A DNA stretch of 64,000 nt from Dehalococcoidia bacterium (GTDB taxonomy: Bacteria > Chloroflexota > Dehalococcoidia > UBA2979), in NCBI GenBank assembly GCA_019694855.1, contig JAIBBD010000003.1, positions 33,264 through 97,263 on the forward strand. Reading direction: 5' to 3'. Below, in pieces: positions 14,666 to 60,194 of the stretch (within the stretch, counting starts at the first letter, position 1; each line of letters begins with the position of its first letter). Both the position numbers and the translations under genes were made by a program. Under the pieces are notes generated by a model. The model saw only the letters and a list, made by a program, of their open reading frames with translations. It did no database searches and was not told the origin of the DNA.

Positions 14666-14764
14666 GCGATACGCCTGATCGACCAATCCGGGCCGGGGCC
14701 CTCTCGCCATCGCGAGGAGGCCCCGGCTTCCGGCATCACCAGCTACGCATCTCTCGCGAAGGAC

Positions 14765-16157: not shown

Positions 16158-16880
16158 TCATACGACGAGGTCCGCTCGCACGACCAGACGCTGGTCGTAG
16201 GCATGCGCGGCCGCGCTGAACGTGCCAGCGCACGTGATCAGCGTCGCCGTCGCCGAAGTTGTCGGGCCGAGGATCTCCCCGACCGGCGCGGTCGCTTCGT
16301 CGTAGGCCGCGACCCACGCCACGCGATACTCGAACGTCGTGCCGTCGTCGAGCCGCACGAGGAACGTATCGCCTGCGCGCAGCTCGCGCAGCCGGTAGAA
16401 CACCGCCGGCCCGTAGTTCGCGAAGTCCACATGCCCCGCGAGCACGAAGTTCCCGTCCTCGCCCGGCGGCGCCGCGAAGGCATACGACGCCACCTCCAGG
16501 GGCCCCGAAGGAGCGGGCATCGTTCCGTCGGCACGCAGACCCAGCGTCACGATCGGCGCATCCACCCCGATCCGAGGTACCACCAGCCGTCCGCCGCCTC
16601 TGGTGGGCGCCGCGGCGCCCACGGCCGCACTCGCGGCACTCGACGAGATCAGCGGCAGCCCGCTCGGTGTGGCGCTGGCAATCGCCGTTCCAGTCGGGGT
16701 CCCGGTGGCCGCTGCGGCCGTGGCCGCGCCGGCCACCGTCACCAGCTCGGGCGTCGAAACCACCGTCGCCACGGTCGCTGCCCTTTCGTTGCCGTCCTCG
16801 CTGGACGAACCGGACCACGACACGCTCGAGATCACGAGCATGACGAGTGCGGTGACCAGCGCGATTCTCAGGACATGCAC
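16158..16880 (-). CDS. Sortase family transpeptidase (class E/F-like)
   Basis: N-terminal TM segment, LVVPRIGVDAPIV, catalytic His in GHVDF, and catalytic Cys in TLITCAG. It follows the LPNTG protein gene. Confidence 0.8.
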   Translation of the reverse strand: MHVLRIALVTALVMLVISSVSWSGSSSEDGNERAATVATVVSTPELVTVAGAATAAAATGTPTGTAIASATPSGLPLISSSAASAAVGAAAPTRGGGRLVVPRIGVDAPIVTLGLRADGTMPAPSGPLEVASYAFAAPPGEDGNFVLAGHVDFANYGPAVFYRLRELRAGDTFLVRLDDGTTFEYRVAWVAAYDEATAPVGEILGPTTSATATLITCAGTFSAAAHAYDQRLVVRADLVV

Positions 16881-16944
16881 CTGGTGCCCCTCGGTACGAC
16901 GAGGAGTGGAGGAGCACTCACTCCCCCACTCCTTCGTCGATGAC

Positions 16945-19900
16945 CTACGACTTCCGCCGCTTTGACCGCGAGCGCATCACCAGCGTGAGCGCTACGACGA
17001 GCCCGGCGCCTGCGGCGAGCCACGAGATCGGGAGCGTCACGTTACGCTGCGCCCGCTCCTTCGCCACCTCGTAGGCCGACACGATCCGGTCCTGCGGGAC
17101 GTTGATCGAACCCGGGAAGTTCCCTCCACTGCCCGTGTTGGGCAGACGGCTCGGCACCGGCTGCGTCGGCGTGGGTGTCGGAGCCTGCACAGGTGGTGGC
17201 GAGCCCAACACCGTGGTCACGACGACCGGCTGGTACGTAATTGAGTGCGTATCACTCCCTGTCGCCGTCTTCTGATTCGGGTCAGTCACCACCGCCGTGA
17301 ACGTGTTCACGTGCGTCCCGAGGGATACCCCAGCCGGCACCGTGAACGTCGCGTCGAACGTGCAACTCGCCCCGATCGCCAGCACCGTGCCGACCTTGCA
17401 GTCGGCGTCGCCGCTCAGCGTCCCGAACTTGTCGTCGCTCAACGATGTGATCGTGACCGCGATCGGCCCCGTGTTCGTCACGGTGTACGTGTACGTCACA
17501 GGGCCGCCGGTCGCCGGCAGCGTCGTCGTCGCCGAGGTCTTGTCGACCAGGATCGAGGGCTGTGGGTTCGCTACGTAGGTAATTGTGTGCGAGTCCTTGC
17601 CCGTTGCCGTCTGCTGCTTCGGATCGGTCACGACCGCCGTGAACGTGTTCACGTGCGTCCCGAGGGCCGCGCCCGCGGGCACCGTGAACGTCGCGTCGAA
17701 CGCGCAGGACGCACCGACCGCGAGCACCGTGCCGACCTTGCAGTCCGCGTCCCCGACCAACGTGCCGAACTTGTCGTCACTCAGCGAGGTAATCGTCACC
17801 GACACCGGCCCGGTGTTTGTCACGGTGTACGTGAACTTCACAGGACCGCCGCCGACGGGCAGCGTGGTTGTGACCGAGGTCTTGTCCACCCGCACCGAGG
17901 GCTTCGGGTCGGCGAGGTACGTGATCGTGTGTGTGTCGTTGGCCGTCGCGGTCTGCTGGTTCGAGTCCGTCACCACCGCGGTAAAGCGGTTGATGTGCGT
18001 CCCGAGGTCAGCCCCGGCTGGGACTGTGAACGTCGCATCGAAGCTGCACGACGCCCCCACGCCCAGCAGGATCCCGACCTTGCAGTCCGCGTCTCCGGCC
18101 AGCGTCCCGAACTTGTCGTCGACCAGCGATGTGATCGTCACGGGCACCGGGCCCGTGTTCGTCACTGTGTAGGTGAACGTCACTGGCCCGCCGCTCGTCG
18201 GCAGTGTCGTCGTGACCGAGGTCTTGTCGACCCGGATCGCCGGCACCGGCACCTGGATATATGTGATCGTGTGCGAGTCGCTCGCCGTCGCGGTCTGCTG
18301 CTTCGCGTCCGTGACAACCGCCGTGAACGTGTTCACGAAGGTCGCGAGCACGGTCCCGCCCGGCACAGCGAACGTGGCGTCGAACGTGCACGAGGCGCCT
18401 ACGGCCAGCGGCGTCCCGACCTTGCAGTCGGCGTCACCCGCCAGGGCTCCGAACTTGTCATCGTTCAGGCTCGTGATCGTGACCGCGACCGGCCCGGTGT
18501 TCGTCACCGTGAACGTGTAGGTGACGGAACCGCCGCCCGCGGGCAATGTCGTCGTCGCCGACGTCTTGTCGACCCGCACCGAGGGCTTTGCGTCAGCGAT
18601 GTACGTGATCGTGTGATCGTCGCTGTCCGTCGCCGTCTTTCCGTTCGAGTCCTTGACGACGGCCGTGAACGTATTGATGTGCGTCGACAGCGCGCTTCCT
18701 GCGGGGACGTTGAACGTCCCGTCGAAGGTGCAGGAGGCGCCCGGCGCGAGCGCCGTCCCGACCTTGCAGTCAGCGTCTCCCGCCAGCGCCCCGAACTTGT
18801 CATCGTTCAGGCTCTGGATCGTCACCGCGACCGGCCCCGTGTTCGTCACCGTGTACGTAAACGTCACCGACCCGCCGCTCGTCGACAGCGTCGAGGTCGC
18901 CGACGTCTTGTCGACGAGCACGGACGGCTGCGGTTCCGCGATGTACGTGATGGTGTGGTCGTCCGTGTCGCTCGCCGTGTGGTCGGCGTTGTCGTGCACG
19001 ACCGCGGTGAACGTGTTCACGTGCGTCGTCTGTGCGGCGCCTGCCGGCACCGTGAACGCGGCGCTGAAGTCGCACCAGGCCCCGACCGCGAGCAGCGTCC
19101 CGACCTTGCAGTCAGCGTCTCCCGCGAGCGGCCCGAACTTGTCGTCGGTCAGGCTCTGGATGGTCACCGCGACCGGCCCCGTGTTCGTCACCGTGTACGT
19201 AAACGTCACCGACCCGCCGCTCGTCGACAGCGTCGTCGTCGCCGAGGTCTTGTCCACCAGCACCGCCGGCAACGGCGTCGCGAGGTACGTGATCGTGTGG
19301 TCGTCTGTGTCGCTCGCCGTGTGGTCGGCGTTGTCGTGCACGACGGCCGTGAACGTGTTCACGTGCGTCGTCTGCGCCGCGCCCGCCGGCACGGTGAACG
19401 CGGCGTCGAAGCTGCACGAGGCGCCCACCGCAAGTGGAGTGCCGACCTTGCAGTCCCCGTCACCGCTCAGCGTCCCGAACTTGTCATCGCTCAGGCTTTG
19501 GATGGTGACCGCCACTGGCCCTGTGTTCGTCACTGTGTAGGTGAACGTCACAGACCCACCGCTCGTCGGCAGCGTCGTGGTGACCGAGGTCTTGTCCACC
19601 AGCACCGACGGTAGCGGCGTGGCCAGGTAGGTGATCGTGTGGTCGTCCGTGTCGCTCGCCGTGTGGTCGGCGTTGTCGTGCACGATGGCCGTGAACGTGT
19701 TCACGTGCGTCGTCTGCGCGGCACCCGCCGGCACGGTGAACGCGGCGTCGAAGCTGCACGAGGCGCCCACCGCAAGTGGAGTGCCGACCTTGCAGTCCCC
19801 GTCACCGCTCAGCGCCCCGAACTTGTCGTCGCTCAGGCTCTGGATCGTCACGGGCACAGGCCCGGTGTTCGTCACCGCGTAGGTGAACGTCACGAGTCCG

Positions 19901-22566: not shown

Positions 22567-22803
22567 CCGAATACCTCACGTCTGGCGCGCGACCGCTCGA
22601 AGCCGAGCAACGGTCGCGGCGCGCTGAACAACGAGGCGCGGTCAACAGAAGGCGCTGTGAGTCGCGAGGCGCATTCGTCGACGAGGCATCGACGACCGGA
22701 GGCGAGTTGTCCGTAGGCGCGCTGACTGAGGGGCGATCAGTCAGAAGGACGGTCGAGGGGCGCTATCTGCACTGTGGAGGTCCGTCCGTCGGTCGTCCAC
22801 AGC

Positions 22804-23051: not shown

Positions 23052-23870
23052 ATGGTCTCCAAGGTCTTCGAGCTGGTGAACTACGAGAAGCGCAACCGCG
23101 TCGCGTGGATCACCATCAACAACGCCGAGCGCATGAACGCCCTCAGCACCGGCGTCATGAACGGCCTCCACGACTCCTTCGAGGAGGCGACCAACGATGA
23201 CGACGTCCTCGTCGTCGTTGTGACCGGCGATGGCGGGCGCGCGTTCTGCGCCGGCGCCGACCTCAAGGAAATGACCGAGCGCGACCAGACCATCGGCCAG
23301 GGCGCCGCGCAGAACGCCAAGAATGGCTTCGACGCCGCCACCAACTGCAAGAAGCCCATCATCGCGGCCGTCGATGGCTACGCCCTCGCCGGCGGCATGC
23401 AGATGTCCGCTCGCTGCGACTTCCGCATCGCCACCCAGAAGTCCATGTTCGGCATGCCGGAGCCGCTCCGCAGCCTCACCCCGATCAACCTCATGGACAC
23501 CCTCGAGCTCGGTTTCGTACCGCTCGGCTGGGCCCTCTGGATCATCCTCTCCGGTGACCACATCACCGCACAGCAGGCCCACGACATCGGGTTCGTGCAG
23601 TGGCTCGTCCCCGACCGCGACGCGATGTTCGAGGAAGCCGAGAAGCGCGCCGAGATCCTCAAGAAGTGCGCTCCCCTCGCCGTGCAGGCGCTGAAGAACG
23701 GCGTCCACCTGCACATGAACCCGCCTACGCCGCCCCAGGGCACGCTGCTGCTCGACCACCTCAAGGGCGTCAACGCCGCGCTGCTCGACAAGGTCGCGAA
23801 CAGCGAGGACCGCATGGAAGGCCCCAAGGCCTTCGCCGAGAAGCGCGCCCCCAACTGGAAGGGCCGCTAA
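23052..23870 (+). CDS. Enoyl-CoA hydratase/isomerase (crotonase) family protein
   Basis: Crotonase fold with the oxyanion motif FCAGADLKE. ATG with a GGAAGG Shine-Dalgarno sequence. C-terminus ...EKRAPNWKGR, paralogous to 47172-47948. Confidence 0.85.
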   Translation: MVSKVFELVNYEKRNRVAWITINNAERMNALSTGVMNGLHDSFEEATNDDDVLVVVVTGDGGRAFCAGADLKEMTERDQTIGQGAAQNAKNGFDAATNCKKPIIAAVDGYALAGGMQMSARCDFRIATQKSMFGMPEPLRSLTPINLMDTLELGFVPLGWALWIILSGDHITAQQAHDIGFVQWLVPDRDAMFEEAEKRAEILKKCAPLAVQALKNGVHLHMNPPTPPQGTLLLDHLKGVNAALLDKVANSEDRMEGPKAFAEKRAPNWKGR

Positions 23871-23895
23871 GCCTCCAGCGTTCGCTGCCGTATGA

Positions 23896-23933
23896 AGAGA
23901 GGCCGTCGCGATCGCGACGGCCTCTCTGTTTCC
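23896..23933 (+). terminator. Intrinsic terminator: perfect 32-nt palindrome followed by GTTTCC
   Basis: AGAGAGGCCGTCGCGATCGCGACGGCCTCTCT GTTT, located immediately after the crotonase stop. Confidence 0.6.
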
Positions 23934-25852: not shown

Positions 25853-25890
25853 GAGAGACCTCGATCCTGCGATCGAGGTCTCTCCTTCAA
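25853..25890 (+). terminator. Hairpin terminator GAGAGACCTCGATC-ctgc-GATCGAGGTCTCTC followed by CTTCAA
   Basis: Perfect 14-bp stem with a 4-nt loop, seen directly. Confidence 0.55.
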
Positions 25891-47171: not shown

Positions 47172-47948
47172 ATGCCAGACCTGCTGTACGAAAAGAAGCA
47201 GAACTACGCGATCTTCACTTACAACCGCCCCGAGCGGCTCAACGCCCTCGGCGGTACCCTCATGGAGGAGCTGCACGTCGCCCTCCAGGACTTCATCGGC
47301 GACCCCGACATGCGCGCCGCCATCGTTACCGGCGCCGGCCGCGCCTTCTCCGCCGGCGCGGACCTCAAGGCGATGGCCGAGCGCAATGCCAGCGGCCAGC
47401 GCCAGATCGCCCTTGGCCACCGCGGCCTTGACCACAGCTTCCCCTGGGTGGACGTCCCGAAGCCCGTCATCGCGGCGGTTAACGGCCTCGCCGTCGGCGG
47501 CGGCATGGAGACCGCCATGTCCTGCGACATCCGCATCGCCTCCACCGATGCCTACTTCGGCCTCTTCGAGGTCAAGCGCGGCATCATGGCCGGCTACGGC
47601 ATCCACCACCTCATGCGGCTCATCCCCGCTTCCCACGCCTACTACACCGTCTTCACCGCGGACCGCATCTCGCCGCAGCAGGCCCTCCAGTGGGGCTTCG
47701 TCACCGAGGTCGTCGAGCCCGACCGCCTGATCCCGCGCGCCGAGGAAATCGCCGCCATGATCGCCGAGAATGCCCCGCTCGCCGAGGCCGGCTCCAAGGC
47801 CATCATGCGGTCGTGGCGCACCTACGGCATCGATGACTCCCTGCAGCTCAACACCTGGGTCAGCAAGGTCGTCATCGACTCCGAGGACGCCAAGGAGGGC
47901 CCCCTCGCCTTCACCGAGAAGCGCGCCCCCGTCTGGAAGGGCCGCTAA
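47172..47948 (+). CDS. Enoyl-CoA hydratase/isomerase family protein
   Basis: Crotonase fold with FSAGADLK. Paralogous to 23052-23870 (shared C-terminus EKRAPVWKGR). Confidence 0.85.
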   Translation: MPDLLYEKKQNYAIFTYNRPERLNALGGTLMEELHVALQDFIGDPDMRAAIVTGAGRAFSAGADLKAMAERNASGQRQIALGHRGLDHSFPWVDVPKPVIAAVNGLAVGGGMETAMSCDIRIASTDAYFGLFEVKRGIMAGYGIHHLMRLIPASHAYYTVFTADRISPQQALQWGFVTEVVEPDRLIPRAEEIAAMIAENAPLAEAGSKAIMRSWRTYGIDDSLQLNTWVSKVVIDSEDAKEGPLAFTEKRAPVWKGR

Positions 47949-47974
47949 GCTCCAACTTCCTTCGAGGTCACGCC

Positions 47975-48010
47975 GAAGCAGCCGAGGCTCACCGCCTCGG
48001 CTGCTTCGTG
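47975..48010 (+). terminator. Hairpin GAAGCAGCCGAGGC-tcacc-GCCTCGGCTGCTTC after the crotonase gene
   Basis: Perfect 14-bp stem with a 5-nt loop, seen directly. Confidence 0.5.
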
Positions 48011-48467: not shown

Positions 48468-49274
48468 CTACCTCCCGAGGTAACGCCCCGCCCGCCGCTC
48501 CGTGAACGCCGCCATCGCCTCGAGGTGGTCCTCGCTCTTGAAGCATGCCACCTCCGCCGCGATCGAGTACGGCAGGATCTCATTCGCGATCAGGCTCAGG
48601 TACCGGTTGATCGCAGTCTTCGTCGACCGCACCGCCATCGGTGCCCCCGCCGACAGCCGCCCCGCCATCGCCACCGCCTCATCGAGGAGCGCTTCGTCCT
48701 CCACCACCCGAAACACCAGTCCGAGGCGATACGCCTCCTCCGCCGGCACCAGCTCGCCCGTCAGCAGGTAGTACCGCGCCTGCTGCAGCCCGGCCAACAG
48801 GGGCCACAACAGCGCCCCGCCATCGCCCGCCGTCACTCCCTGGTTCGACACATGCGTGTCCCCGAAACGCGCACTCGGCGCTGCCAGCACCACATCGCCG
48901 AGCAGCGCCAGCGTCGCACCGACCCCCAGCGCATACCCGCGCACCGCCGTCACCACCGGCTTGTCCAGCCCCACCCAGTCCAGCAGCAGGTTCCGCGCCT
49001 CCACGAGCATCTCGCCGAACATCGCGTCCGCCTCCAGCTCGCCCATGTCCGCTCCCGAGCAGAACGACGTCCCCGCCCCCACGATCACCGCCGCCCGCAC
49101 CTCGTCATCCGCCTGCAGTACCCGAGGCAACAGCGCGATCTCCGTGTGCATCCGTGTCGTCACCGCGTTCAACCGCTGCGGCCGGTTCAGCGTCACGACC
49201 GCGATCCCGTCCTCCCGCCGCTCGACCAGCAAATGCTCGAACTCCTCGTGCCGAAACCGCATCCTGCCAGCCAT
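48468..49274 (-). CDS. Enoyl-CoA hydratase-related (crotonase superfamily) protein
   Basis: Crotonase fold with FCSGADM. Confidence 0.8.
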   Translation of the reverse strand: MAGRMRFRHEEFEHLLVERREDGIAVVTLNRPQRLNAVTTRMHTEIALLPRVLQADDEVRAAVIVGAGTSFCSGADMGELEADAMFGEMLVEARNLLLDWVGLDKPVVTAVRGYALGVGATLALLGDVVLAAPSARFGDTHVSNQGVTAGDGGALLWPLLAGLQQARYYLLTGELVPAEEAYRLGLVFRVVEDEALLDEAVAMAGRLSAGAPMAVRSTKTAINRYLSLIANEILPYSIAAEVACFKSEDHLEAMAAFTERRAGRYLGR

Positions 49275-49451
49275 CCTGGCCTCCCTTCATCGGGTACTGC
49301 CGAGAATGTATCGGACACGCTCGCCCACCGGCCGCGACGACATCCAGGTGACCGTAAGTGGCCGCCCTCCCGTGGAATGGAGCCGGCGCGCCTTCGCCGC
49401 CCCACTCCTCGCCAACCGTTCCCAGGCAGCAACAAACACTCCGAACTCCGA

Positions 49452-49565
49452 CCGCGCGCGCAGCCTGCCGCGTTCGAGGGGGTCAAAGGGGCGAAGCCTC
49501 CTTCGAGGCGGGCGGTCGAGCCTTCCCAGGAACAACAGTCGGCTCCGCGAAGCGGCCGCCCTCAT
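49452..49565 (+). repeat. Structured intergenic repeat family, copy A (degenerate)
   Basis: Shares GTTCGAGGGGGTCAAAGGGGCGAAG...GCGGCCGCCCTC with copies B, C and D. Confidence 0.6.
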
Positions 49566-49687
49566 CGCATCGCGCGCAAAGCGGAGCATCTCCTCTTCTC
49601 CCTGAAGGAGAAGGACCGGGGGAGGAGGAGCGAACGATGCGTCACACCGGACGCCTCGCGCGAGCACACCCTCCACGCTCGGGAACT

Positions 49688-49836
49688 CCCCCGCGCAGGC
49701 GTCAGCCTGCTGCGTTCGAGGGGGTCAAAGGGGCCAAGTCCCCTTTGCGGTGGGCGGGCGGGCCCTCCGAAAAAACACCTGCCGGCAGCGCAGCGGCCGT
49801 CCTCAGCGCGCCGCGCAGCGGCGCGCGTCGGCCTCC
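49688..49836 (+). repeat. Structured intergenic repeat family, copy B (full length), abutting the argG stop codon
   Basis: CCCCGCGCAGGCGTCAGC...GTTCGAGGGGGTCAAAGGGGCCAAGTCCCCTTTG...GGGCGGGCGGGCCCTCCGAAAAAACA...CGCGCCGCgcagCGGCGCGCG. Confidence 0.65.
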
Positions 49837-51081
49837 CTAGTCCTCCCCCACCGTCCCGAGGCGCAACGGATCATCGTCCTTCGCGTCCAGCATCAGCTGC
49901 CGACGCGCCTGCACCTCCACCGGGAGCCCATGCAGCTTGATGAACCCGAGCGCCGCGGACTGATCGAACTGGTCGCCCTCGCTGTACGTCGCCAACGCGT
50001 GGCTGTACAGACTCCGCTCCGACTGCCGCCCGACCGCCGTCGCCGTCCCTCGATGCAGCCGCATCCGCACCTCGCCCGTCACATGCCGCTGCGTCGACTG
50101 CACGTACGCCGCCAGGTCCTGGTGGTGCGCCGTGAACCACAGCCCGTTGTAGATCAGGTCCGCATACTCCTGCGCCACCCGCTCCTTGAAGCGCAGCTGC
50201 AACTTCGTCAGCGTCAGCGCCTCCAGCGATCGATGCGCCTCCAGCAACGTCACGGCCGCCGGCGACTCGTAGATCTCGCGAGACTTAATCCCCACGAGGC
50301 GGTCCTCGACCATATCGATCCGCCCCACCCCGTGCTCACCCGCCAGCGCGTTCAGCCGCTCCACCAGCTCGACCGCACGCAACTCCTCCCCGTCGAGGGC
50401 CACCGGGGCCCCGTGGTCGAATCGGATCGTCACGTACGCCGGCTCCTCCGGCGTCGCCCGCACCGGCTTCGTCCAGGCATACACCTCCTCGGGCGGCTCC
50501 ATCCACGGGTCCTCGAGCATCCCCGCCTCGACCGACCTCCCCCACAGGTTCTCGTCCGTCGAGTACGGCGAAGCCACCGTCTGCTTGATCGGGATCCCGT
50601 GGCGTTCCGCGTACGCGATTGCCTCGTCGCGGTTCATCAGGTTCTCGCGCGCCGTCCCCACCACCTTCAGGTCCGGCCCCAGTGCCCGGATCGACACATC
50701 GAACCGCACCTGGTCGTTGCCCTTGCCCGTGCACCCGTGTGCCACCGCCGTCGCGCCCACCTCGCGCGCCTTGTCAACGAGCAACTTCGCGATCAACGGC
50801 CGTCCGAGGGCCGTCGCGAGCGGGTACGAGCCCTCGTACACCGCACCCGCGCCGAGCGCCGGGTACACGAAGAAACGCAGGAAATCCTCCTTGGCGTCGA
50901 CCACATCCACGGCCAGCGCCCCCGCCTTCAGCCCCCGCTCGCGCGCCGAATCCACATCCGGCAGCCGTCCGAGGTCCACCATCAGGCACACCACCTCGTA
51001 GCCGCGCGCTTCCTGCAGCCACTTCGTAGCCACCGAGGTGTCCAGCCCCCCGGAGTACGCCAGCACGATCGTCTCACCCAT
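49837..51081 (-). CDS. argG: Argininosuccinate synthase
   Basis: Start MGETIVLAYSGGLDTS (ATG 51081; the track ORF starts at GTG 51096). Full ArgG similarity across about 415 aa. Confidence 0.9.
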   Translation of the reverse strand: MGETIVLAYSGGLDTSVATKWLQEARGYEVVCLMVDLGRLPDVDSARERGLKAGALAVDVVDAKEDFLRFFVYPALGAGAVYEGSYPLATALGRPLIAKLLVDKAREVGATAVAHGCTGKGNDQVRFDVSIRALGPDLKVVGTARENLMNRDEAIAYAERHGIPIKQTVASPYSTDENLWGRSVEAGMLEDPWMEPPEEVYAWTKPVRATPEEPAYVTIRFDHGAPVALDGEELRAVELVERLNALAGEHGVGRIDMVEDRLVGIKSREIYESPAAVTLLEAHRSLEALTLTKLQLRFKERVAQEYADLIYNGLWFTAHHQDLAAYVQSTQRHVTGEVRMRLHRGTATAVGRQSERSLYSHALATYSEGDQFDQSAALGFIKLHGLPVEVQARRQLMLDAKDDDPLRLGTVGED

Positions 51082-51217
51082 GACCCGCTCCACCACTCAC
51101 CAAAGCACGAGGGAGTCGCCCGCCACACCGGTCAAACGGCGACGCGCCTGAGTATAAGAGCCCTCGCCGCTACCCTCCTCACGATGTGACCGGGACACGC
51201 CGACCGAAGCCCCCGTT

Positions 51218-51310
51218 CCAGGGCGGACGGGTGGGACCTTCCGAAAAACACTGCCGGCCCACGCAGCGGGCCGTCTCCTCCCGGCCGGCGCAGCCGGCCG
51301 CCCTCCGCCT
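51218..51310 (+). repeat. Structured intergenic repeat family, copy D (3' half only) between argD and argG
   Basis: GGGTGGGACCTTCCGAAAAACACTGCCGGCC...GGCCCacgcagcGGGCC...GGCCGGCGCAGCCGGCCGCCCTCC. Confidence 0.6.
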
Positions 51311-51498
51311 CGCCCGCAACGCGGGAGAGGGGAACTGAGGGGGCGACGGAGCACCCGACCCGGCGCCGACGCAACCGGCATCGAAGACAGACACCCCAAC
51401 GCCGGCCCCGAGCCCCGCCCCGCTTGCGGGGGAGAGTGTGGAGGATCCGAGAAACCGCTGCCGAGCGGGAACGAGGCCTCGGTCGCCCCCCCGAGGTA

Positions 51499-52689
<1,191 letters not shown>

Positions 52690-52729
52690 GGTTCGCTCCT
52701 CTGCATCTGTGCTCGCGGCTCGTTGGAGT

Positions 52730-55549
52730 CTAGCGCTGCGACTGCGCTTCGATCTGGTTCAGCAGCTGTCGCAGCCGGTCGAGGTCCTGTTGTGCGGCAT
52801 CGGAGGCCTGGCGCGCCTGGTCGATCAGCGCCCGCAGGTCGGCCGGCGTCAACGTACCCGTCGGCGTCGCCGCCGGCGTCCCGCCCGGCGTTGCCGTCCG
52901 CGTCGCGCCCGGCGTCGCCGTGGCCGTCGGCGTCCCCGGCAGCGTCGGACCTGCGGGCGCCCCCGGGAGTGTCGAGGCGCGCCGCCCCAGCACCACATCG
53001 AGCGCCTCCTGGAACGAGGGCTCCATGGCGATGTCGTTCCCGTTCGCGACGACTACCCGCTTCAGCTCCGGCAGCCGCGAGTTCTCCGCCTGCAGGTACA
53101 CCGGCTCCACGAACAGGAAGGAGTCCGCGATCGGGATCATGAACATGTTGCCGCGGATCACCTGCGACCCCGACTGGTTCCACAGCGTCAGTTGCTGCGA
53201 GATGCCCGGCGTCTGGTCGATCCGCGCCTCGATCTGCGCCGGACCGTAGACGAGCGTGTCCGTCGGGAAGCGATACGCGCGCAGCTTCCCGTAGTGCTCC
53301 GGGTCCGACCGCGCCGCCAGCCACCCCACCGTATTTGCCTTGTTCCGAGGGGTGAACGGCATCACGATGACGAACTCTTCGTCCGCCTCGCCCGGCAGCT
53401 TCATCGTCAGGTAGTACGGCTCCAGAGGCTCCTCGCGCTGCCCCGTCTTCTGCAGCGGGATGTTCCACACGTCCTCCCCGACGAAGAACACCCGGGGGTC
53501 GGTGATGTGGTACTTGAGGTAGATGTCTGACTGCGCCCGGAACAGGTCCTCCGGGTAGCGCACATGTGCGCGCAGCGCCTCGGGCATCTCCTCGGCCGGC
53601 GTGAACAGCTTCGGAAAGATCTTCGCCCACGTCGCCGCGATCGGCTCATCCGGCTCCATGAGGTAGAACTTCATGTCACCCGTCAGCGCGTTCGTCACGA
53701 CCTTGACGCTGTTCCGCATGTAGTTCGTGTCGCCCCGATGCTGCGCGTACGGGAACCGCCCCGACGAGGTGTATGCGTCCTGCACCCAGTAGATCTGCCC
53801 GTCGAGGACGACCGCGTACGGGTCCCGGTCCAGCGTCAGGAACGGCGCGACCTTCTTGATCCGTTCCGAGAGCTGTCGGTGCATCAGCACCCGCGAGTCC
53901 GATCCGAGCTGCCCCGAGATCAGCACGTTCGGGTCGCCCAGCTCCCACGCCAGCGCGATGCGGCGCACCGCCGAGGACAGACGAATGCCCCGGTCAGGCT
54001 CGTACCGCGTCTCCGAGTTCCCGTCCCCCAGCGGGTAGTCGAACTCCGCCACGTTCGTTCGCACGATCACGTAATGTGTCGTGCGCTCCCCGAAGTAGAC
54101 GCGCGACCCCTCGAGGCTGACCGGTACCTGGTCGCCGACCGGCGGAATGTCCCGCGTCAGCAGCACCGGGAGCCCCTCGTCGCGCGCCTCGTTCACCGGC
54201 GACACCACCGCGCCGAAGCCGTGCGTCAACTGCAACTGCTCGCGCGTCCAGTTCGCCTCCACCCGCCCGATGTCCAGCTCGCGCACCGCGAGCATCACCT
54301 GTTGCTCAGTGCCCCCCACCGAGTAGCGGTCCACGTCCACGTCGCTGAACACATAGAACGGCCGGATCGACTGGATCTGGTTGAACGTGTCCAGCAGCGG
54401 CCCCGGGTCCCACACTCGCACGTTTCGGATCGTGTCCTGGTTTGCGTCCACCGCGGACGCCGCCAGCGACTGCCGCGCGGGATAGTTCGTTTCCTCCACC
54501 CCGTCGAGGTCGAACGCCAGCCGCGTGAACTCAATATTCCGCGCGATGTACGGCTCTTCCTTCTCCAGCTCGTTCGGCCGCACCTGCACCGACTGCACCG
54601 CCGAGGGGTACAGGCCGCCGCCGACCAGCCCCGCCACGGCGATTCCGCCGAGCGCCACCGCCGGCACCCGATAGTGCGTCGAGAGGAATGCGCTCGCGAT
54701 GACCGTGGCCCCGGCGAACGCGGTCAGCACGATCAGTACGTACCGCACCGGCACGCGCGCGTGCACGTCCGTGTACCCCGCGCCGTCCACGAGCCCGCCG
54801 GGCTCGCTCACGAGGTCGAAGATGCCCAGCCAGATCCCCACGGCGATCAGCAGCAGCGCAACTCCCACGAGGATCGACAGGTGGATCCGCATCGGCCGCG
54901 TCACGTTCAACACGAACCGCTGCAGCGAGAACGTCAGCCCGTACACCGCCCCCGCCGCCAGGGTCGAGATCACCACGAGCGCCAGCAACCACCCCTGCAG
55001 GAGGTGATAGGCCGGCAGGTCGAACAGGTAGAACGAGACGTCGCGCCCGAACTGAGGGTCCTCGCGCCCGAACGACACGCCGTTCAGCCACGACAGCACG
55101 GTCTGCCAGGCTCCGCCCAGTGCCGACCCGAAGATCAACGCCAGGAAGATCGTGCTCGCCACCATCAGCACGGTGCCAACCCGCCGGATCGCCTGCGGGT
55201 CCACGTCCTCGATGAAGGACTCTTCCGGCGCGTCCGGGGCCAGCCGCCGCGCCAGCCACACGTTGCCCCCGATGACCGCGGCCGATACCGCCGCCCCTAC
55301 CAGGAACAACACGACCCGCCACGCGATCGCCCGCCGGTACACGCTGCCGTAGTCGACGGAGTCGAACCACAGCATGTTCACGTAGATCGACTTCAGCACG
55401 CTCAGCAGCGCGAACAGCACGAGCACCGCGGCCGCGATGCCCAGCCAGCGCACCGCCGCCGGCGGCGCCCGGAAGCGTCGGCCCTCGCGGTCGAACCGGA
55501 AGGGGTCAGGCGGAGGCCCGAGGTCGCCGCGGTCCTCGTAGAACTGCAT
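52730..55549 (-). CDS. UPF0182-family large membrane protein
   Basis: 939-aa protein: N-terminal roughly 300 aa with about 7 TM helices, a large extracytoplasmic domain, and a C-terminal Pro/Thr/Ala-rich tail with a coiled-coil. Inserted between argB and argD. Confidence 0.85.
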   Translation of the reverse strand: MQFYEDRGDLGPPPDPFRFDREGRRFRAPPAAVRWLGIAAAVLVLFALLSVLKSIYVNMLWFDSVDYGSVYRRAIAWRVVLFLVGAAVSAAVIGGNVWLARRLAPDAPEESFIEDVDPQAIRRVGTVLMVASTIFLALIFGSALGGAWQTVLSWLNGVSFGREDPQFGRDVSFYLFDLPAYHLLQGWLLALVVISTLAAGAVYGLTFSLQRFVLNVTRPMRIHLSILVGVALLLIAVGIWLGIFDLVSEPGGLVDGAGYTDVHARVPVRYVLIVLTAFAGATVIASAFLSTHYRVPAVALGGIAVAGLVGGGLYPSAVQSVQVRPNELEKEEPYIARNIEFTRLAFDLDGVEETNYPARQSLAASAVDANQDTIRNVRVWDPGPLLDTFNQIQSIRPFYVFSDVDVDRYSVGGTEQQVMLAVRELDIGRVEANWTREQLQLTHGFGAVVSPVNEARDEGLPVLLTRDIPPVGDQVPVSLEGSRVYFGERTTHYVIVRTNVAEFDYPLGDGNSETRYEPDRGIRLSSAVRRIALAWELGDPNVLISGQLGSDSRVLMHRQLSERIKKVAPFLTLDRDPYAVVLDGQIYWVQDAYTSSGRFPYAQHRGDTNYMRNSVKVVTNALTGDMKFYLMEPDEPIAATWAKIFPKLFTPAEEMPEALRAHVRYPEDLFRAQSDIYLKYHITDPRVFFVGEDVWNIPLQKTGQREEPLEPYYLTMKLPGEADEEFVIVMPFTPRNKANTVGWLAARSDPEHYGKLRAYRFPTDTLVYGPAQIEARIDQTPGISQQLTLWNQSGSQVIRGNMFMIPIADSFLFVEPVYLQAENSRLPELKRVVVANGNDIAMEPSFQEALDVVLGRRASTLPGAPAGPTLPGTPTATATPGATRTATPGGTPAATPTGTLTPADLRALIDQARQASDAAQQDLDRLRQLLNQIEAQSQR

Positions 55550-55571
55550 CAGGCGCCGGCCGAGCCAGTCA

Positions 55572-56345
55572 TCAGGCGATCCGGGTCCCGATCGCCTCGC
55601 CGCCCGCCACCCGCCGCAACGTCCCCCCCGTGCGGCCGTTCACCATGTGCGCGACCGCCCCCGCCTCGGCCGCCCGGAAGCACGCCTCCACCTTCGGGAT
55701 CATCCCGCCCGAGAGCGTCCCTGCCGCCCGCAGGGCTTCGGCGCGTTCCGCGTCGAGCGCCGGGATCAGCGCCCCGTCCCCGTCGAGGAGCCCGTCGACG
55801 TCCGTGAGGAACACCAGCTGCCGCGCGCCGACGGCCCGCGCCACCTCGCCGGCCACCGTGTCCGCGTTGATGTTCAGCGGCTGCTCCGGCGCCTCGAGGC
55901 CGACCGGAGCGATCACCGGGATCGCCCCCGCCTCCATCAGCGCCCCCAGGAACGCCCCGTCCACCGAGGTGACGCGCCCCACGTACCCCAGCCGTGGGTC
56001 GTACCGCTCCGCCCGCACCACGCCGCCGTCGACCCCGGACAGCCCGACCGCCCGGCCGCCGCGCTGCACGATCGCCGCTACGAGCTGCGTGTTGATCACC
56101 CCGCGCAGTACCGCGAGCACGACCTCCATCGCCTCCGCCGAGGTCGACCGCAGCCCGTCCACGAACTCCGAGGGCACGTCGAGCCGCGTCAGCCAGTCCG
56201 TGATCATCGCTCCGCCGCCATGGACAACGGCAACGCGCTCCCCCGCCTGGTGCAGCGCCACCACGTCATCGAGTGTCGTGTCTTCCGCGCCCAGCGTGGA
56301 ACCGCCGATCTTCACCACAATCGGCCGCTTCGGGGTCTCACTCAT
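55572..56345 (-). CDS. argB: Acetylglutamate kinase
   Basis: IVVKIGGS...VVHGGG amino-acid kinase motifs. 257 aa. Confidence 0.9.
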   Translation of the reverse strand: MSETPKRPIVVKIGGSTLGAEDTTLDDVVALHQAGERVAVVHGGGAMITDWLTRLDVPSEFVDGLRSTSAEAMEVVLAVLRGVINTQLVAAIVQRGGRAVGLSGVDGGVVRAERYDPRLGYVGRVTSVDGAFLGALMEAGAIPVIAPVGLEAPEQPLNINADTVAGEVARAVGARQLVFLTDVDGLLDGDGALIPALDAERAEALRAAGTLSGGMIPKVEACFRAAEAGAVAHMVNGRTGGTLRRVAGGEAIGTRIA

Positions 56346-56363
56346 CTCGTTCGTCTCATTCAG

Positions 56364-57605
56364 TTATGTCGTGTAGTCCGCGTTGATTCGGATGTAGTCC
56401 TCGGTCAGGTCGCAGCCCCAGGCCGTCGCCCGTTCCTCCCCCAGCCCCAGCTCCACGCGGATCTTCACTTCTTCTGCGTCCATCGCCTTCGAGAGCACCG
56501 CGTAGTCCACGTCCGTCGGCACGCCCCGCTCGAACGCGCAGTACGGCCCGATCCACACGCTCGCACGCTCCACCTCGACCCGCGCCCCCGACCGCCCGAC
56601 GGCCATCAGCACCCGCCCGAGGTTCGCGTCGCGCCCGGTCACCATCGTCTTCACCAGCGGCGACGATGTCACCGTCCGCGCCGCTTTCCGCGCGTCCTCG
56701 CGCGTCGCCGCGCCCTCGACCGTCACCTCGATCAGCGTCCGCGCCCCTTCACCGTCTCGCGCGAGGTCACGCGCCAGCGCGATCGCCAGCGCCTCGATCG
56801 CCTCGCGCAACGGCCCCGAGGCCGGATGCGTCGCGTCGATCGGCTCGCCCCCGGCCGCCCCGTTCGCGAACAGCAGCATCGTGTCGCTCGTCGAGGAATC
56901 CATGTCGACATCGATCATATTGATCGACAGGTCCCCCACCTCGCGCAGCGTCTGCTGCAGCCACCCGAGTTCACAGGGTGCATCCGTCGTCAGGAAGCAG
57001 AACACCGTGGCCATGTCCGGATGCACCATCCCGGACCCCTTCGCCGTCCCTCCGACCGTGTACGTGCGCCCGCCCGAGGTCACCCGCGCCGCCCGGTGCT
57101 TCGGCACCGTGTCTGTCGTCATGATCGCCCGGGTGAACAGTGCCCCGCCGTCCGCGGTCGGCTCAATCGAGACGATCCCGGCCTCGATCTTGTCCATCGG
57201 CATGATCCGCCCGATCACCCCCGTCGAGGCGACCAGCATCTCCTGCACCTCGATGCCAGACTGCCGCGCCGCCAGCTCGGCCATCCGCGCCGCGTCGCGG
57301 TCTCCCTGCTCGCCGGTGACCGTATTCGCATTCCCCGAGTTCGCGACGATGCCCCGCGCTCGCCCCGTCACCACCCGTGCCCGGTTGTACTTGATCGGCG
57401 CGCCGACCACGCCGTTGCGGCTGAAGATCCCCGCCACCGACGCCGGCTGCTCCGACACCAGGATCCCCACGTCGTAGCGAGGCTCCTCGCCATACGTCCG
57501 CACCCCCGCGTACGCCGCCCCCGCCCGCCATCCGAGGGGCGTCGTTACACCGCCGCCCTCAACCCACTCCAGCTCCACAGCCACGGCTCGCCCTTCCGAC
57601 ACCAT
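56364..57605 (-). CDS. argJ: Bifunctional glutamate N-acetyltransferase/amino-acid acetyltransferase
   Basis: ArgJ family with the self-cleavage site region ATMLVF-type (…DMATVFCFLTTDA). The start was chosen at MVSEGRAV (57605); the track ORF is longer. Confidence 0.85.
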   Translation of the reverse strand: MVSEGRAVAVELEWVEGGGVTTPLGWRAGAAYAGVRTYGEEPRYDVGILVSEQPASVAGIFSRNGVVGAPIKYNRARVVTGRARGIVANSGNANTVTGEQGDRDAARMAELAARQSGIEVQEMLVASTGVIGRIMPMDKIEAGIVSIEPTADGGALFTRAIMTTDTVPKHRAARVTSGGRTYTVGGTAKGSGMVHPDMATVFCFLTTDAPCELGWLQQTLREVGDLSINMIDVDMDSSTSDTMLLFANGAAGGEPIDATHPASGPLREAIEALAIALARDLARDGEGARTLIEVTVEGAATREDARKAARTVTSSPLVKTMVTGRDANLGRVLMAVGRSGARVEVERASVWIGPYCAFERGVPTDVDYAVLSKAMDAEEVKIRVELGLGEERATAWGCDLTEDYIRINADYTT

Positions 57606-57907
57606 CGAGCCGCGAGTATAGCCGAGCACGAACAACCCCGGCCCCCTGAGGCGAAGGAACTCGGTCACAGACCTTAGAGGAGCGCAGTGCAAAAGCAGCG
57701 CCGCCGCAAACCTCGGTGGAAGGTGAGGTAGGAGGCTCTAAGGAACGGCCGCGCCTCAGCACAACGTCGACCCGAGCCCACCAACACCACAATGGAAGGG
57801 GCGACCCCCAGCCGGGCGGGTGAGCGGGCTCAAACGCCAGCCGGCTCCGCCAGCCTGACGACCGTCGCTCCGCGTCGTCCCTCTACCTCGCCGCCACGTC
57901 CGTGACC

Positions 57908-58053
57908 GCCCCGCGCAGGCGTAGCTCGGTCAGGTTCGAGGGGGTTCAGGGGACGAAGGCCCCTGAGGGGTGGGCAGGCGGGCCTCCCACACAACAACAG
58001 CCGGGCCGCGCAGTGGCCCGTGCACACCCGGCCGGCCCAGCCGGCCGCCCTCC
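57908..58053 (+). repeat. Structured intergenic repeat family, copy C (full length) upstream of argJ
   Basis: CCCCGCGCAGGCGTAGC...GTTCGAGGGGGTTCAGGGGACGAAGGCCCCTGAGG...GGGCAGGCGGGCCTCCC...CCGGGCCgcgcagtGGCCCG...GGCCGGCCCAGCCGGCCGCCCTCC. Confidence 0.65.
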
Positions 58054-58113
58054 CCGAAGTGTGAGACGGAGCCGAAGGGACAGGGCACAACCGCCCGCCG
58101 AGGCGTTACGGCC

Positions 58114-58878
58114 CTACCGGCAGACAAAATCGCTGTCTACGCCGCGCGAAATGTACTGCACCAGCCATACCGGCCCGCCGGCGAAGCTCGAGCTGCAGCG
58201 CTGCGCCGCATCCCGCGCATTGAGCGCCCCCGCCACCCAGTTCGGCGTCGACGAGAACTGCCGGCCGCCCGTGATCGTCGTCCACTGGTAACGCGTCGAG
58301 TAGATCCCGACCCCGCCCGCGCCGAGGCTCCGCAGCGCCTCGAGGTACCCCAGGATCGCCTCACCGTTCGCCGCCGTCGTCCCGTTCCAGCTGTTCACGG
58401 TCTCCACGTCCAGCCACCAGTACCGCCCGGTCGCGGCCCCCGAGGTCGCGCCGTTTGCCACGGTCCACGCGTCGTTCGCCGCGTTCCAGCCGTAGTTGTA
58501 CGCACACCCCACGTCCGAATACGACGTCGCGTCGGCGCACGTCCGAGGTCCCGGCCGGTTCCAGTACTTGCTGATCGGACCCGGGTTCGCCGTATTCATG
58601 TAGAAGGACGCCCCGGAGGAGGCACCACGCGCCCACTGGTACTCCGTCGCCAGGCACGGGTTCGCCGACCACGGCAGCCCATTCGTCACGCCCACGATCC
58701 CGAACGCCCCGCCTCGAGGGAGCGTCGCGCCGCATTGCGGGTACGACACGTCGAACCCCGTGCTGCCCGCCGGATAGAACGTGCTCGCCAGGCCGCCGGC
58801 CGAAGTCACAAGCGCCAGCACCAGGGCCACGAACGCAGCCGCCACCACCAGACGCATCGAAGTCGAACGGCGCGCCAT
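58114..58878 (-). CDS. Secreted DUF1906-like (glycoside-hydrolase-like) protein
   Basis: N-terminal signal/TM. Motifs ...STGFDVSYPQCG... and ...YWWLDVE..., typical of the DUF1906 / GH25-like TIM-barrel family. Confidence 0.6.
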   Translation of the reverse strand: MARRSTSMRLVVAAAFVALVLALVTSAGGLASTFYPAGSTGFDVSYPQCGATLPRGGAFGIVGVTNGLPWSANPCLATEYQWARGASSGASFYMNTANPGPISKYWNRPGPRTCADATSYSDVGCAYNYGWNAANDAWTVANGATSGAATGRYWWLDVETVNSWNGTTAANGEAILGYLEALRSLGAGGVGIYSTRYQWTTITGGRQFSSTPNWVAGALNARDAAQRCSSSFAGGPVWLVQYISRGVDSDFVCR

Positions 58879-58959
58879 GCTTCCCTCACTCCCGGATCTG
58901 TCGAGGCTCGACAGCGCCCGCAGCATACCAGCCGCCCGTCGCACCGACTCGAAGTCCGG

Positions 58960-59667
58960 TCATCCGAGCGGCGGCAAGCCCACCCGCGGACACCGCTCGA
59001 GCAACGGGCATCGAGCACACTCCGGCCCCCGCGCATGACAGGTCCGCCGCCCGTGCTGGATCAGGTCCACGTGAAACGCATACACCTCATCCGGCGCCAG
59101 CATCCCCTCGAGGATCACGTGCGCCTGCTCCACGCTCGCCTTCGGCGGCACCAGCCCCAGTCGTCGCGACACCCGGTCCACGTGGGTGTCCACCGGCAGC
59201 GCCGGCCGCCCGAGCGCGAACAGCAGCACGCACGCCGCCGTCTTCGGTCCCACTCCCGGCAGCGCCCGCAGCCACGCCTTCGCTTCCTCGAGCGGCATCG
59301 TCTCGAGGAACCCGAGGTCGTACTCCGGCGTCAGCTCCCGCACCGCCGCCAGCAGCTCCTGCAGCCGCGGGGCCTTCGTCGGAGCAAGCCCGCCCGGCCG
59401 GATCGCCTCCTCCACGTCCGAGGTGCGCGCTGCGATCACCCCATCCCACTCCGGGAACCGCTCCAGCAGCCGGTGGAACGCCCGCCCCGAGTTGTGGTCG
59501 GACGTATGCTGCGACAGCAGCGTCAGCACCAGCTCCGCCATCGGGTCCCCCGAGGCCTGCGCCGGCGCCCGCCCGTAGTACGCATCGAGGATCGCGATCA
59601 GCTCGGATGGGGCGTACAGCCCTGTGCTCTCGCTTCCCGCCGCACTTGAATGTCGACGCCCCGCCAT
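58960..59667 (-). CDS. nth: Endonuclease III (HhH-GPD DNA glycosylase with [4Fe-4S])
   Basis: HhH-GPD motif LPGVGPKTAACVLLFALGRPALPVDTHV and the C-terminal cluster CHARGPECARCPLLERC. Confidence 0.85.
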   Translation of the reverse strand: MAGRRHSSAAGSESTGLYAPSELIAILDAYYGRAPAQASGDPMAELVLTLLSQHTSDHNSGRAFHRLLERFPEWDGVIAARTSDVEEAIRPGGLAPTKAPRLQELLAAVRELTPEYDLGFLETMPLEEAKAWLRALPGVGPKTAACVLLFALGRPALPVDTHVDRVSRRLGLVPPKASVEQAHVILEGMLAPDEVYAFHVDLIQHGRRTCHARGPECARCPLLERCPRVGLPPLG

Positions 59668-59753
59668 GCGCGCATCGTAGCCCGCGCCAGCCTCGCCGGC
59701 AGCGCTACACCGTGCCCATGCATGACAATGTGCGCAGCCGAAAGGATCGCCCC

Positions 59754-60194
59754 ATGCGCCGAATAGTCCGCTCCCTGCCTCTTGTCCTCGCCGCGTTCGC
59801 CGCCCTCGCCCTCCTGGCTGCCTGCGGCGGGGACGACAAGGACGAGGCGCCCGCGCGCGCCATGCAGGTCTCGATGCAGGACATCGCCTACTCGAACATC
59901 GCCCTCACCGCCTCAAAGGGTGAGCACATCCGCATCGAGCTCGACAACAAGGGCCAGGTCACCCACGACTTCACGGTCGACGGCATCCCGATGCAGGGCC
60001 TCCACATGATGGGCGGCGCCAGCGGCGGCGATCACCAGCACATGGCCGCCGACCACGCCATGCACCTCGCCCTCGACAAGGGCCAGTCCGGCTCCCTGGA
60101 GTTCACCCCCACCGAGGCCGGGACCTACGAGTTCTACTGCACCGTCGCCGGCCACCGCGACGCCGGAATGCACGGCACGCTCACCGTCCAGTAA
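59754..60194 (+). CDS. Cupredoxin-like (type-1 copper) lipoprotein
   Basis: Lipobox LAACGG. Candidate Cu ligands His (…VTHDF…), Cys-x-x-x-x-His (YCTVAGH) and Met (GMHG). AAAGGA Shine-Dalgarno sequence before the ATG. Confidence 0.7.
   Translation: MRRIVRSLPLVLAAFAALALLAACGGDDKDEAPARAMQVSMQDIAYSNIALTASKGEHIRIELDNKGQVTHDFTVDGIPMQGLHMMGGASGGDHQHMAADHAMHLALDKGQSGSLEFTPTEAGTYEFYCTVAGHRDAGMHGTLTVQ

Follow-up and report, generated by a model that had tools for sequence, protein, structure and literature searches.

The stretch of DNA considered here (the window, 64,000 nucleotides of contig JAIBBD010000003.1 in assembly GCA_019694855.1) belongs to a Dehalococcoidia bacterium of the Chloroflexota and carries a block of arginine (arg) genes whose spacers are punctuated by four copies of a structured repeat of about 150 nucleotides (nt). 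The minus strand is the coding strand of all the genes surrounding the copies, namely an enoyl-CoA hydratase (ECH) gene (48468-49274), argG (49837-51081, with its stop codon at 49837-49839), argD (51499-52689), a UPF0182 protein gene (52730-55549), argB (55572-56345), argJ (56364 to about 57584), a conserved secreted-protein gene to which no family could be assigned (58114-58944) and a HhH-GPD glycosylase gene (58960-59904). The G+C content of the window is 65-72% and its plus strand is C-rich along the whole length, while the top matches of its ArgG are uncultured Dehalococcoidia/Chloroflexota metagenome-assembled genomes (MAGs), the nearest being 92% identical. No identical protein is on record for the window's ArgG, ArgB or ECH. 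A first inspection made without database searches (the sequence-only reading) had proposed that the copies were either REP/MITE-like elements or cis-acting RNAs tied to the arg genes. The family is described below as what it probably is, a lineage-specific, non-coding, modular and structured interspersed DNA repeat that is not specific to arginine.

The main unit, module 1, is present in the window four times according to a covariance model (R1), always on the plus strand and always between genes, with no fifth copy in the 64 kb. Copy A (49449-49596; 116 bits, E 3e-21) is the most decayed of the full-length copies, copy B (49688-49836, or 49688-49833 by the model; 120.7 bits, E 3.5e-22) abuts the argG stop codon, copy C (51176-51308; 68.5 bits, E 9e-12) is truncated or decayed at its 5' end, where the clear likeness begins near 51202 and the 5' third of the element is missing, and copy D occupies 57908-58055 (117.8 bits, E 1.3e-21). 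When each copy was compared with the window by blastn, A matched B at 78% over 137 nt (E 5e-18), B matched D at 78% over 113 nt (E 1.5e-13) and C matched D at 82% over 61 nt (E 4e-9), with no further match to any copy below E 0.005; a separate repeat search of the window returned the same repeat families. A profile built from the window copies alone also matched copies in the loci fetched from other genomes, with E values from 4e-33 to 3e-8. The four co-oriented intergenic copies reported by the sequence-only reading are thus confirmed by blastn, profile and covariance model alike, and every shared block that it listed was found in the copies. Its boundaries stand in part, as copies A and C extend further than it had drawn them.

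An alignment of 11 family members, comprising the four window copies and seven from elsewhere, reveals that module 1 contains four short GC hairpins (HP0 to HP3), each of 17-23 nt and differing in sequence, with conserved single-stranded blocks between them (GTTCGAGGGGGT, GGGGTGGGCGGGCGGGCCTTCC and an A-rich run). The consensus opens with HP0 (GCAGGC-GAA-GCCTGC, with an outer CGC/GCG extension) and the block GTTCGAGGGGGT, proceeds through HP1 (CAAGGGGGC-GAA-GCCCCCTTTG) to the G-block GGGGTGGGCGGGCGGGCCTTCC and the A-rich run, continues with HP2 (CCGGGCCGC-GCA-GCGGCCCGG) and a short linker, and finishes with HP3 (GGCCGGC-GCA-GCCGGCC) and the end motif GCCGCC(C)TCC. Most of these parts can be followed in copy B, where HP0 lies at 49692-49714, GTTCGAGGGGGT at 49714-49725, HP1 at 49726-49747, the G-block at 49749-49764, the A-run at 49768-49778, HP2 at 49782-49799 and HP3, in the form CGCGCCGC/GCGGCGCG, at 49806-49826. 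Copy A retains the GTTCGAGGGGGT block (49472-49483), HP1 (49486-49503), HP2 (49540-49558) and a weak HP3 (49572-49587); copy C retains the G-block (51221-51238), the A-run (51242-51251), HP2 (51255-51273, GGCCC/GGGCC) and HP3 (51283-51299); and copy D possesses a decayed HP0 (57912-57929), GTTCGAGGGGGT (57934-57945), HP1 (57946-57966), the G-block (57967-57984), HP2 (58002-58020, CGGGCC/GGCCCG) and HP3 (58030-58046). Several details of the first description require amendment in the light of this anatomy. The TCAGGGG/CCCCTGA form of the first hairpin, which had been placed in copy C, is HP1 of copy D (57946-57966); the former second hairpin merges two different ones, HP2 and HP3; and its supposed gcgcag loop is a GCA triloop closed by a C-G pair. 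The 5' hairpin HP0 and the second module described next were absent from it.

Module 1 is frequently followed by module 2, a unit of about 50 nt made up of a CTCNCCC-loop-GGGNGAG hairpin and a G-rich tail ending in GAGGGAGCAAAC. In the window, module 2 occurs after copy A (49589-49639, plus strand; nhmmer E 1.3e-6), with a TTCTCCC-tgaa-GGAGAA hairpin and the G-rich tail GGGGGAGGAGGAGCGAAC, after copy C (51308-51360, plus strand; E 2.5e-5), with the hairpin CTCGCCC-gcaac-GCGGGAGAG and a G-rich tail, and as a solitary unit (51413-51459, plus strand; E 7.6e-5) directly 3' of the argD stop, argD occupying the minus strand from 51499; its nhmmer profile gave no other match in the window. The two modules combine variably, and units follow one another head-to-tail, recurring every 240-300 nt. 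No copy is bounded by terminal inverted repeats, the ends sharing instead a direct GCGCAG motif. Several copies have CTCCG(G) at both flanks, which is a part of the element, an array junction or a fixed target rather than a variable duplication, and TCCGG directly precedes four or five of the eight intact 5' ends, which is only suggestive of a fixed target there. The G-block of the consensus conforms to the quadruplex motif G3-N1-G3-N1-G3-N1-G3; the motif is intact in five of the 11 copies and in none of the four from the window, and with no four-tract motif on the window's plus strand a G-quadruplex was rejected as a conserved feature of the window copies. Across the whole window, canonical quadruplex motifs (four tracts of at least three G, loops of 1-7) number zero on the plus strand and nine on the minus strand.

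The compensatory changes that the sequence-only reading had noticed in the hairpins are real. In the alignment made with MAFFT, 92.4% of the cells in paired columns form standard pairs and seven pairs are changed on both sides (14 cells), and in none of 500 shuffles did the pairing or the covariation score come up to the observed value; when the partners are slid by one to three columns, the pairing falls to 30-47%. An alignment fitted to the covariance model, which leans towards structure, gave 93.3% pairing and nine doubly changed pairs (16 cells), with slid controls at 32-51%. RNAalifold recovered HP0, HP2 and HP3 without being supplied with a structure. Deviations from the consensus amount to 11% of the letters in paired columns and 18% in unpaired ones, and at these rates about one doubly changed cell that still pairs would be expected by chance, against the 16 observed. 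The number of independent events is smaller than 16, because some cells were inherited together: the HP3 variant GCGCCGC/GCGGCGC, for example, is common to window copies A and B and to copy A of the sister locus L052 (L52A), and perhaps six or seven compensatory events were independent. The hairpins are, accordingly, actively maintained by compensatory change. Folding energies of single sequences as RNA were uninformative against the GC-rich background (z-scores from -1.8 to +1.0), while the fold of copy B as DNA gave z-scores of -2.7 on the plus strand and -3.1 on the minus strand.

The element is non-coding. Column variability by codon position is 0.165, 0.152 and 0.150, without three-base periodicity, and indels of one and two nt separate the copies, by which a decayed coding sequence is ruled out; the flanks of the copies differ, as opposed to the identical flanks of recent local duplications. 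A six-frame translation of the consensus, concatenated and used as a protein query for spurious open reading frames (ORFs) over the copies, found no matches. Searched against Rfam, the whole window had no match at the gathering threshold and the copy regions returned chance-level hits only (E above 1 in a search to E 10). Two further identities were considered and discarded: a tRNA-like or T-arm origin of the GTTCGA motif, around which inspection showed no flanking stems, and an integron attC site, as there is neither an overall dyad nor a GTTRRRY box.

The most unusual trait of the family is its uniform type of loop. A three-base GNA loop closed by a C-G pair (C-GNA-G) caps 29 of the 38 family hairpins (14 GAA, 14 GCA and one GTA), the G and the A being constant while the middle base varies among copies at the same hairpin. 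This loop is found at all four hairpins and on one strand only, the plus strand, which in the window is antisense to the arg genes; among the perfect triloop hairpins outside the repeats, counted on both strands of the window, two of 88 are of this type. On a GC stem, C-GNA-G corresponds to the DNA motif known as the d(GCGNAGC) mini-hairpin, whose stability is extraordinary as DNA and far lower as RNA, and for which the C-G closing pair matters (PMC13037366; PMC3201870). Mismatches within the stems are balanced (eight G-T, nine A-C), and on neither strand is there a hint that RNA wobble is tolerated. Since all four hairpins bear the same hyper-stable triloop on the same strand, we infer that the form being maintained is a fold of single-stranded DNA. 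Four stems of unrelated sequence that almost always carry a C-GNA-G triloop give an uncommonly clear hint from nature that the fold being maintained is one of DNA and not of RNA.

Every window copy lies 3' of a gene (copy D of the secreted-protein gene, copy C of argD, copies B and A of argG), and none lies in a 5' leader. On the minus strand, a -10-like TATACT box lies upstream of argG (51151-51156; conserved in the window, L052 and L077) and another upstream of argJ (57615-57620; conserved in the window and L052), both embedded in short conserved blocks (GCTCTTATACTCAGGC; GGCTATACTCGCGGCTCGA) and likely to be real arg promoters. Copy C is located upstream of the argG box, its decayed 5' end abutting the argG promoter region, while copy D is located about 290 nt upstream of the argJ box and 60 nt 3' of the secreted-protein gene.

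The closest relative available, L052 (GCA_050181135.1), shares 92% ArgG identity and the same gene order, and the comparison between the two covers 21 kb of L052 and 64 kb of the window genome; L053 (GCA_050246855.1) represents the same locus as L052. Orthologues of copies B (11251-11397), A (11523-11665) and D (2562-2702) are present in L052, together with an extra copy E (2875-2994) upstream of argJ and orthologues of module 2 after copy A (11478-11528) and of the solitary module 2 at argD (9219-9265). The module 2 of copy E (2743-2810, minus strand) carries a (GGGGTGA)4 run, a strong G-quadruplex motif that is missing from the window. The secreted-protein gene of the window (58114-58944, minus strand) is 81% identical to its L052 counterpart (1726-2484), has no Pfam or NCBIfam match, was seen in the window/L052 clade only and shares with copies D and E an insertion between argJ and the HhH-GPD gene. 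The position of copy C is empty of a copy in L052, L077 and L078, the argD-argG spacer of L052 holding a DUF5946 gene in its place. No copy was detected in the loci whose ArgG is 90% (L078), 89% (L077), 86% (L076), 85% (L054-56) or 83% (L057-59) identical; these relatives keep the order argJ-argB-UPF0182-argD-argG, with argD-argG spacers of 131-133 nt where uninterrupted, and in a relative with 87% ArgG identity the spacers are just 40-80 nt. Because relatives at 83-90% preserve the arg order without copies, the family belongs to the window/L052 clade alone, and the arg genes can do without it. The argD-argG spacer itself is an insertion hot spot among the relatives (window 51082-51498; L052 9185-10000; L054 7094-10000; L076 7166-10000), occupied by a PAS/HAMP histidine kinase gene in L054 and L076, by DUF5946 in L052, by the repeat in the window and by nothing in L077 and L078. 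More generally, the family marks spacers of changing gene content, namely argD-argG, downstream of argG and upstream of argJ.

Beyond the arg region, a strict pattern for the central block retrieved 16 loci from 241 million metagenome records, two of which are true members. One, L064, is a contig of 1130 nt whose two ends are partial copies, with a secreted repeat-protein gene unrelated to arginine between them; these copies are co-oriented with their gene, the reverse of the window arrangement, and a protein search with the gene found no matches. The other, L069, bears a near-consensus copy with module 2 before it; over 1-1868 this repeat copy of 79% G+C is joined to a low-G+C gyrA-like C-terminal ORF, and L069 is probably a chimera that arose at the repeat during assembly. 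A scan of GTDB representative genomes with GTTCGAGGGGGT-N22-30-GGGCNGNCGNGC returned 51 loci and no true copy, the window's own genome likewise not being recovered, and two scans of viral contigs and a blastn search of plasmids and phages were without copies. About half of the 51 loci (L001, L002 and some 20 others) proved to be one conserved coding stretch of Actinomycetes (..LFEGVDAAAVKASRAAELA..), apparently methionine synthase as judged from reading its translation, and such false positives show that GC-rich patterns strike coding DNA by chance. Contigs also end inside copies, L053 within copy B (with an artefactual G/C tail) and L064 at both ends, which is how a multi-copy repeat behaves in short-read assemblies. 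The family is useful as a marker of this uncultured Chloroflexota lineage of high GC content, and it explains the contig breaks in the MAGs of the lineage.

The window copies are 61-74% identical to one another and 75-81% identical to the near-consensus copy B of L052 (L52B), whereas orthologous pairs between the window and L052 reach 76-81%. As this pattern of identities is star-like, it points to a burst of copying shortly before the two lineages separated, in which a master sequence would have given rise to the copies. Independent decay would have ensued, leaving copy C truncated and copy E nearly gone in the window. Pairwise alignment traces something like a heavily deleted L052 copy E at about 57680-57725 of the window, below the detection of model R1, and this may be the remnant of a fifth copy. 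Copies A and B of L052 are 94% identical to each other, a likeness that indicates conversion between neighbouring copies.

Taken together, the family probably represents an interspersed repeat propagated as DNA, for which a REP/MITE-like element, the first of the two proposals of the sequence-only reading, is the right kind: a structured intergenic repeat family with hairpins kept by compensatory change. Units of module 1 and module 2 sit head-to-tail in spacers 3' of genes, and their single-stranded fold would be recognised in trans by an enzyme specific for single strands. As to which enzyme this might be, our guess is that the likeliest candidate would be a RAYT-like or IS200/IS605-like HUH/Y1 transposase; in that event the element would behave as do REP/REPIN or the non-autonomous derivatives of IS200, and both its mobility and any effects on transcripts are put forward here as suppositions. 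If a cognate single-strand enzyme exists, the family supplies a concrete substrate on which it could be tested. A number of observations weigh against this interpretation. No transposase, Y1_Tnp or otherwise, was found among the 46 window ORFs scanned, and neither terminal inverted repeats nor variable target duplications mark an insertion. With copies A, B and D orthologous in the two genomes, there is no direct record of a recent transposition. The presence of copy C in the window alone and of copy E in L052 alone could stem from losses instead of gains, and the four window copies all lie inside 9 kb, which is clustering and not dispersal. The hairpins can possibly be kept without selection, via template switching at palindromes or gene conversion, beside which the 94% identity of L52A and L52B must be set. 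By GC skew, the strand bearing the hairpins would seem to be the leading-strand template, the opposite of the IS200/IS605 preference. Finally, the strict patterns gave just those two true copies among the metagenome records and none among the GTDB representatives, a scarcity that speaks for rarity of the lineage, a small number of copies, or both.

The first alternative to be weighed, which we consider unlikely as the main role, is that the copies serve as terminators or 3' mRNA stabilisers of argG, argD and the secreted-protein gene, with the minus-strand HP3 and HP2 hairpins followed by a U-rich run. Each of the four window copies does follow the 3' end of a gene on the minus strand, copy B beginning at the argG stop itself, and in a simple scan the minus-strand HP2 of copies C and D came out as terminator-like. 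Read in the sense of the genes, the U-rich run after HP2 is strong in copies B and C and in the L052 copies and weak in A and D; copies B and C present UGUUUUUUCGG and UGUUUUUCGG, and the L052 copies A and B present U7. The minus-strand RNA of copy B is predicted to fold into a long composite hairpin ending at the U-run, and REP and BOX elements are known to affect co-transcribed genes (PMC3049150; bioRxiv 10.64898/2026.03.23.713779). With Rho-independent terminators the family has in common a gene-sense GC hairpin and a U-rich run placed 3' of genes; it departs from them in that the run lies 5-6 nt beyond the HP2 stem, at least five consecutive A/U are present in just six of the 11 copies, the element is oversized and its orientation to genes is inconstant, the L064 copies facing the opposite way. 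Other genes of the window end in simple perfect palindromes of 13-15 bp, relatives lack the element altogether, the stable GNA loops are on the opposite strand, and 150 nt with four hairpins and conserved single-stranded blocks far exceed what a terminator needs. A side effect as terminator or 3' stabiliser is plausible in the window orientation; such a role cannot explain the existence of the family, in view of the L064 copies, the unit's size and the strand that carries the stable loops. Perfect or near-perfect palindromes of 13-16 bp with weak T-runs were noted at the gene ends 23896-23927, 25853-25884, 47974-48008 and 14692-14727, and these are probably the ordinary terminator type of this organism.

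A bolder version of the interspersed-repeat interpretation, which we regard as rather improbable, holds that the unit is a dedicated single-stranded DNA device, in which four hyper-stable C-GNA-G mini-hairpins and, on the same strand, a quadruplex block of G3-N1 repeated four times would define a new non-autonomous class of the Chloroflexota moved by a putative HUH/Y1-type enzyme, or else a single-strand signal, for instance in priming or in recognition as a hairpin promoter. If a cognate single-strand enzyme exists, the family supplies a concrete substrate on which it could be tested.

Somewhat more doubtful is the proposition that the copies stem solely from duplications and gene conversions made locally, in the arg region of a single ancestor, as a non-mobile segmental repeat whose hairpins are a by-product of palindrome-templated repair. 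It would accommodate the confinement of the window and L052 copies to some 9 kb around the arg genes, the head-to-tail arrays with their 240-300 nt period, the ongoing conversion implied by L52A and L52B, and the want of a transposase among the 46 window ORFs. It fits poorly with the copies of L064 and L069 in unrelated contexts, with contigs ending inside copies, with identities that are star-like and not dependent on distance, and with the 1.4 kb and 6.6 kb of conserved single-copy genes that separate copies.

That the copies are multicopy genes for structured small RNAs, transcribed from the plus strand and antisense to the arg genes, is very unlikely. The GNA loops, G-rich blocks and hairpins are indeed on the plus strand, and the covariation is compatible with RNA. 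Against this, no promoter-like site was found upstream of any copy and no terminator on the plus strand, G-U is not favoured over A-C in the stems, Rfam gives no match, the copies are truncated and decaying, and a GNA triloop with a C-G closing pair is far less stable as RNA (PMC13037366).

The last candidate, which takes in the attenuator named in the second proposal of the sequence-only reading, is that the copies are arginine-responsive cis-elements (an attenuator, a riboswitch or an array of ArgR operators); its sole attraction is their location among the arg genes, and it is scarcely credible given that relatives with 83-90% ArgG identity keep the same operon without them, that the copies lie 3' of genes or upstream of the conserved TATACT boxes and outside 5' leaders, that further copies adjoin unrelated genes elsewhere, that Rfam offers no match and that the copies would appear, being GC-rich and not palindromic overall, to be unlike ARG boxes, which are AT-rich. 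The case serves as a caution that repeats punctuating an operon and displaying compensatory changes need not regulate it, the relatives having revealed a young, clade-restricted repeat.

The preferred interpretation, an interspersed structured DNA repeat, places the family in well-known company, and it appears to be undescribed so far, yet of the familiar bacterial kind represented by REP, BIME, BOX and MITE. Its nearest analogues are the BOX, RUP and SPRITE elements of Streptococcus pneumoniae, which are restricted to close relatives, proliferated in the past, have been judged parasitic and can influence co-transcribed genes (PMC3049150). In common with them, the present family is intergenic and non-coding, falls within 100-200 nt, varies in the number of its modules and has extensive predicted structure; like them, it is confined to one species and its closest relative, with past proliferation followed by slow turnover, and its copies occupy at least four distinct loci. 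It has no sequence kinship with these elements and differs from them in its four different C-GNA-G hairpins and G-rich blocks, in its high-GC Chloroflexota host and in a copy number that may be low.

The REP, BIME and REPIN elements associated with RAYT (PMC2817692; PMC3733652; PMC3116915) are likewise extragenic GC stem-loops with compensatory change and a presumed single-stranded DNA form, found between co-oriented genes and clustered into mosaics with further short motifs; for REPs, a G-rich and potentially tetraplex-forming 5' half has also been reported (PMC4690160). A REP, however, is one palindrome of 20-40 bp with a GTAG/CGTC head, present as a rule in over 100 copies and arranged in inverted pairs. 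The present unit was excluded as a REP by its roughly 150 nt and four different hairpins, and with regard to the head (PMC3733652), GTAG occurs once in the 11 copies and CGTC follows the 3' arm of HP2 in about half of them, on the wrong side and with the wrong polarity, and follows no other hairpin. REPIN and BIME were set aside on the grounds that all window and L052 copies have the same orientation, head-to-tail, without inverted pairs, and a classical MITE on the grounds that there are no terminal inverted repeats and no copy-specific target-site duplications.

Non-autonomous elements derived from IS200/IS605 resemble the family in having same-strand hairpins near both ends (here HP0 at the 5' end and HP3 at the 3' end) with neither terminal inverted repeats nor target-site duplications. 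They differ in that no TnpA or TnpB is encoded among the window ORFs, the end hairpins HP0 and HP3 are different in sequence, the target motif of the present element is uncertain and its orientation with respect to the inferred direction of replication is not as expected. The d(GCGNAGC) mini-hairpins of single-strand initiation sites and the hairpin promoters of phage N4 (PMC13037366) show the same C-GAA-G and C-GCA-G loops on short GC stems, also strand-specifically; there the motif serves singly, as a functional site in the single-stranded DNA of a phage or plasmid, whereas here four occur in a chromosomal repeat. The GGGNATC heptamer repeats of Xanthomonas and Nostoc (PMC4692102) similarly place G-tracts between co-oriented genes near stop codons, and the (GGGGTGA)4 run of module 2 in L052 and the G3-N1 series of the module 1 consensus are further points of likeness, while the G-tracts here are one part of a larger hairpin element and none of the four window copies has an intact four-tract motif.

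Several other features of the window deserve brief mention. The GC skew is negative across the entire window regardless of gene strand, which suggests that its plus strand is the lagging strand. The UPF0182 membrane-protein gene stands between argB and argD in every fetched Dehalococcoidia relative (also in L052, L054, L057 and L076), as a conserved part of the arg cluster whose presence there is unexplained. The ECH paralogues at 23351-23872 and 47459-47950 share 76-86% DNA identity across their 3' parts, a stretch that takes in the stop codon and the TAAGC after it, the gene at 48468-49274 being the third ECH gene of the window. Lastly, an ORF of 1877 amino acids (16945-22575, minus strand) with DUF7507 domains contains 11 tandem repeats of 342 nt (114 amino acids) at 17228-21001, which are 67-83% identical to one another; since a sortase gene (16158-16976) adjoins it, the ORF probably encodes a sortase-anchored surface protein.

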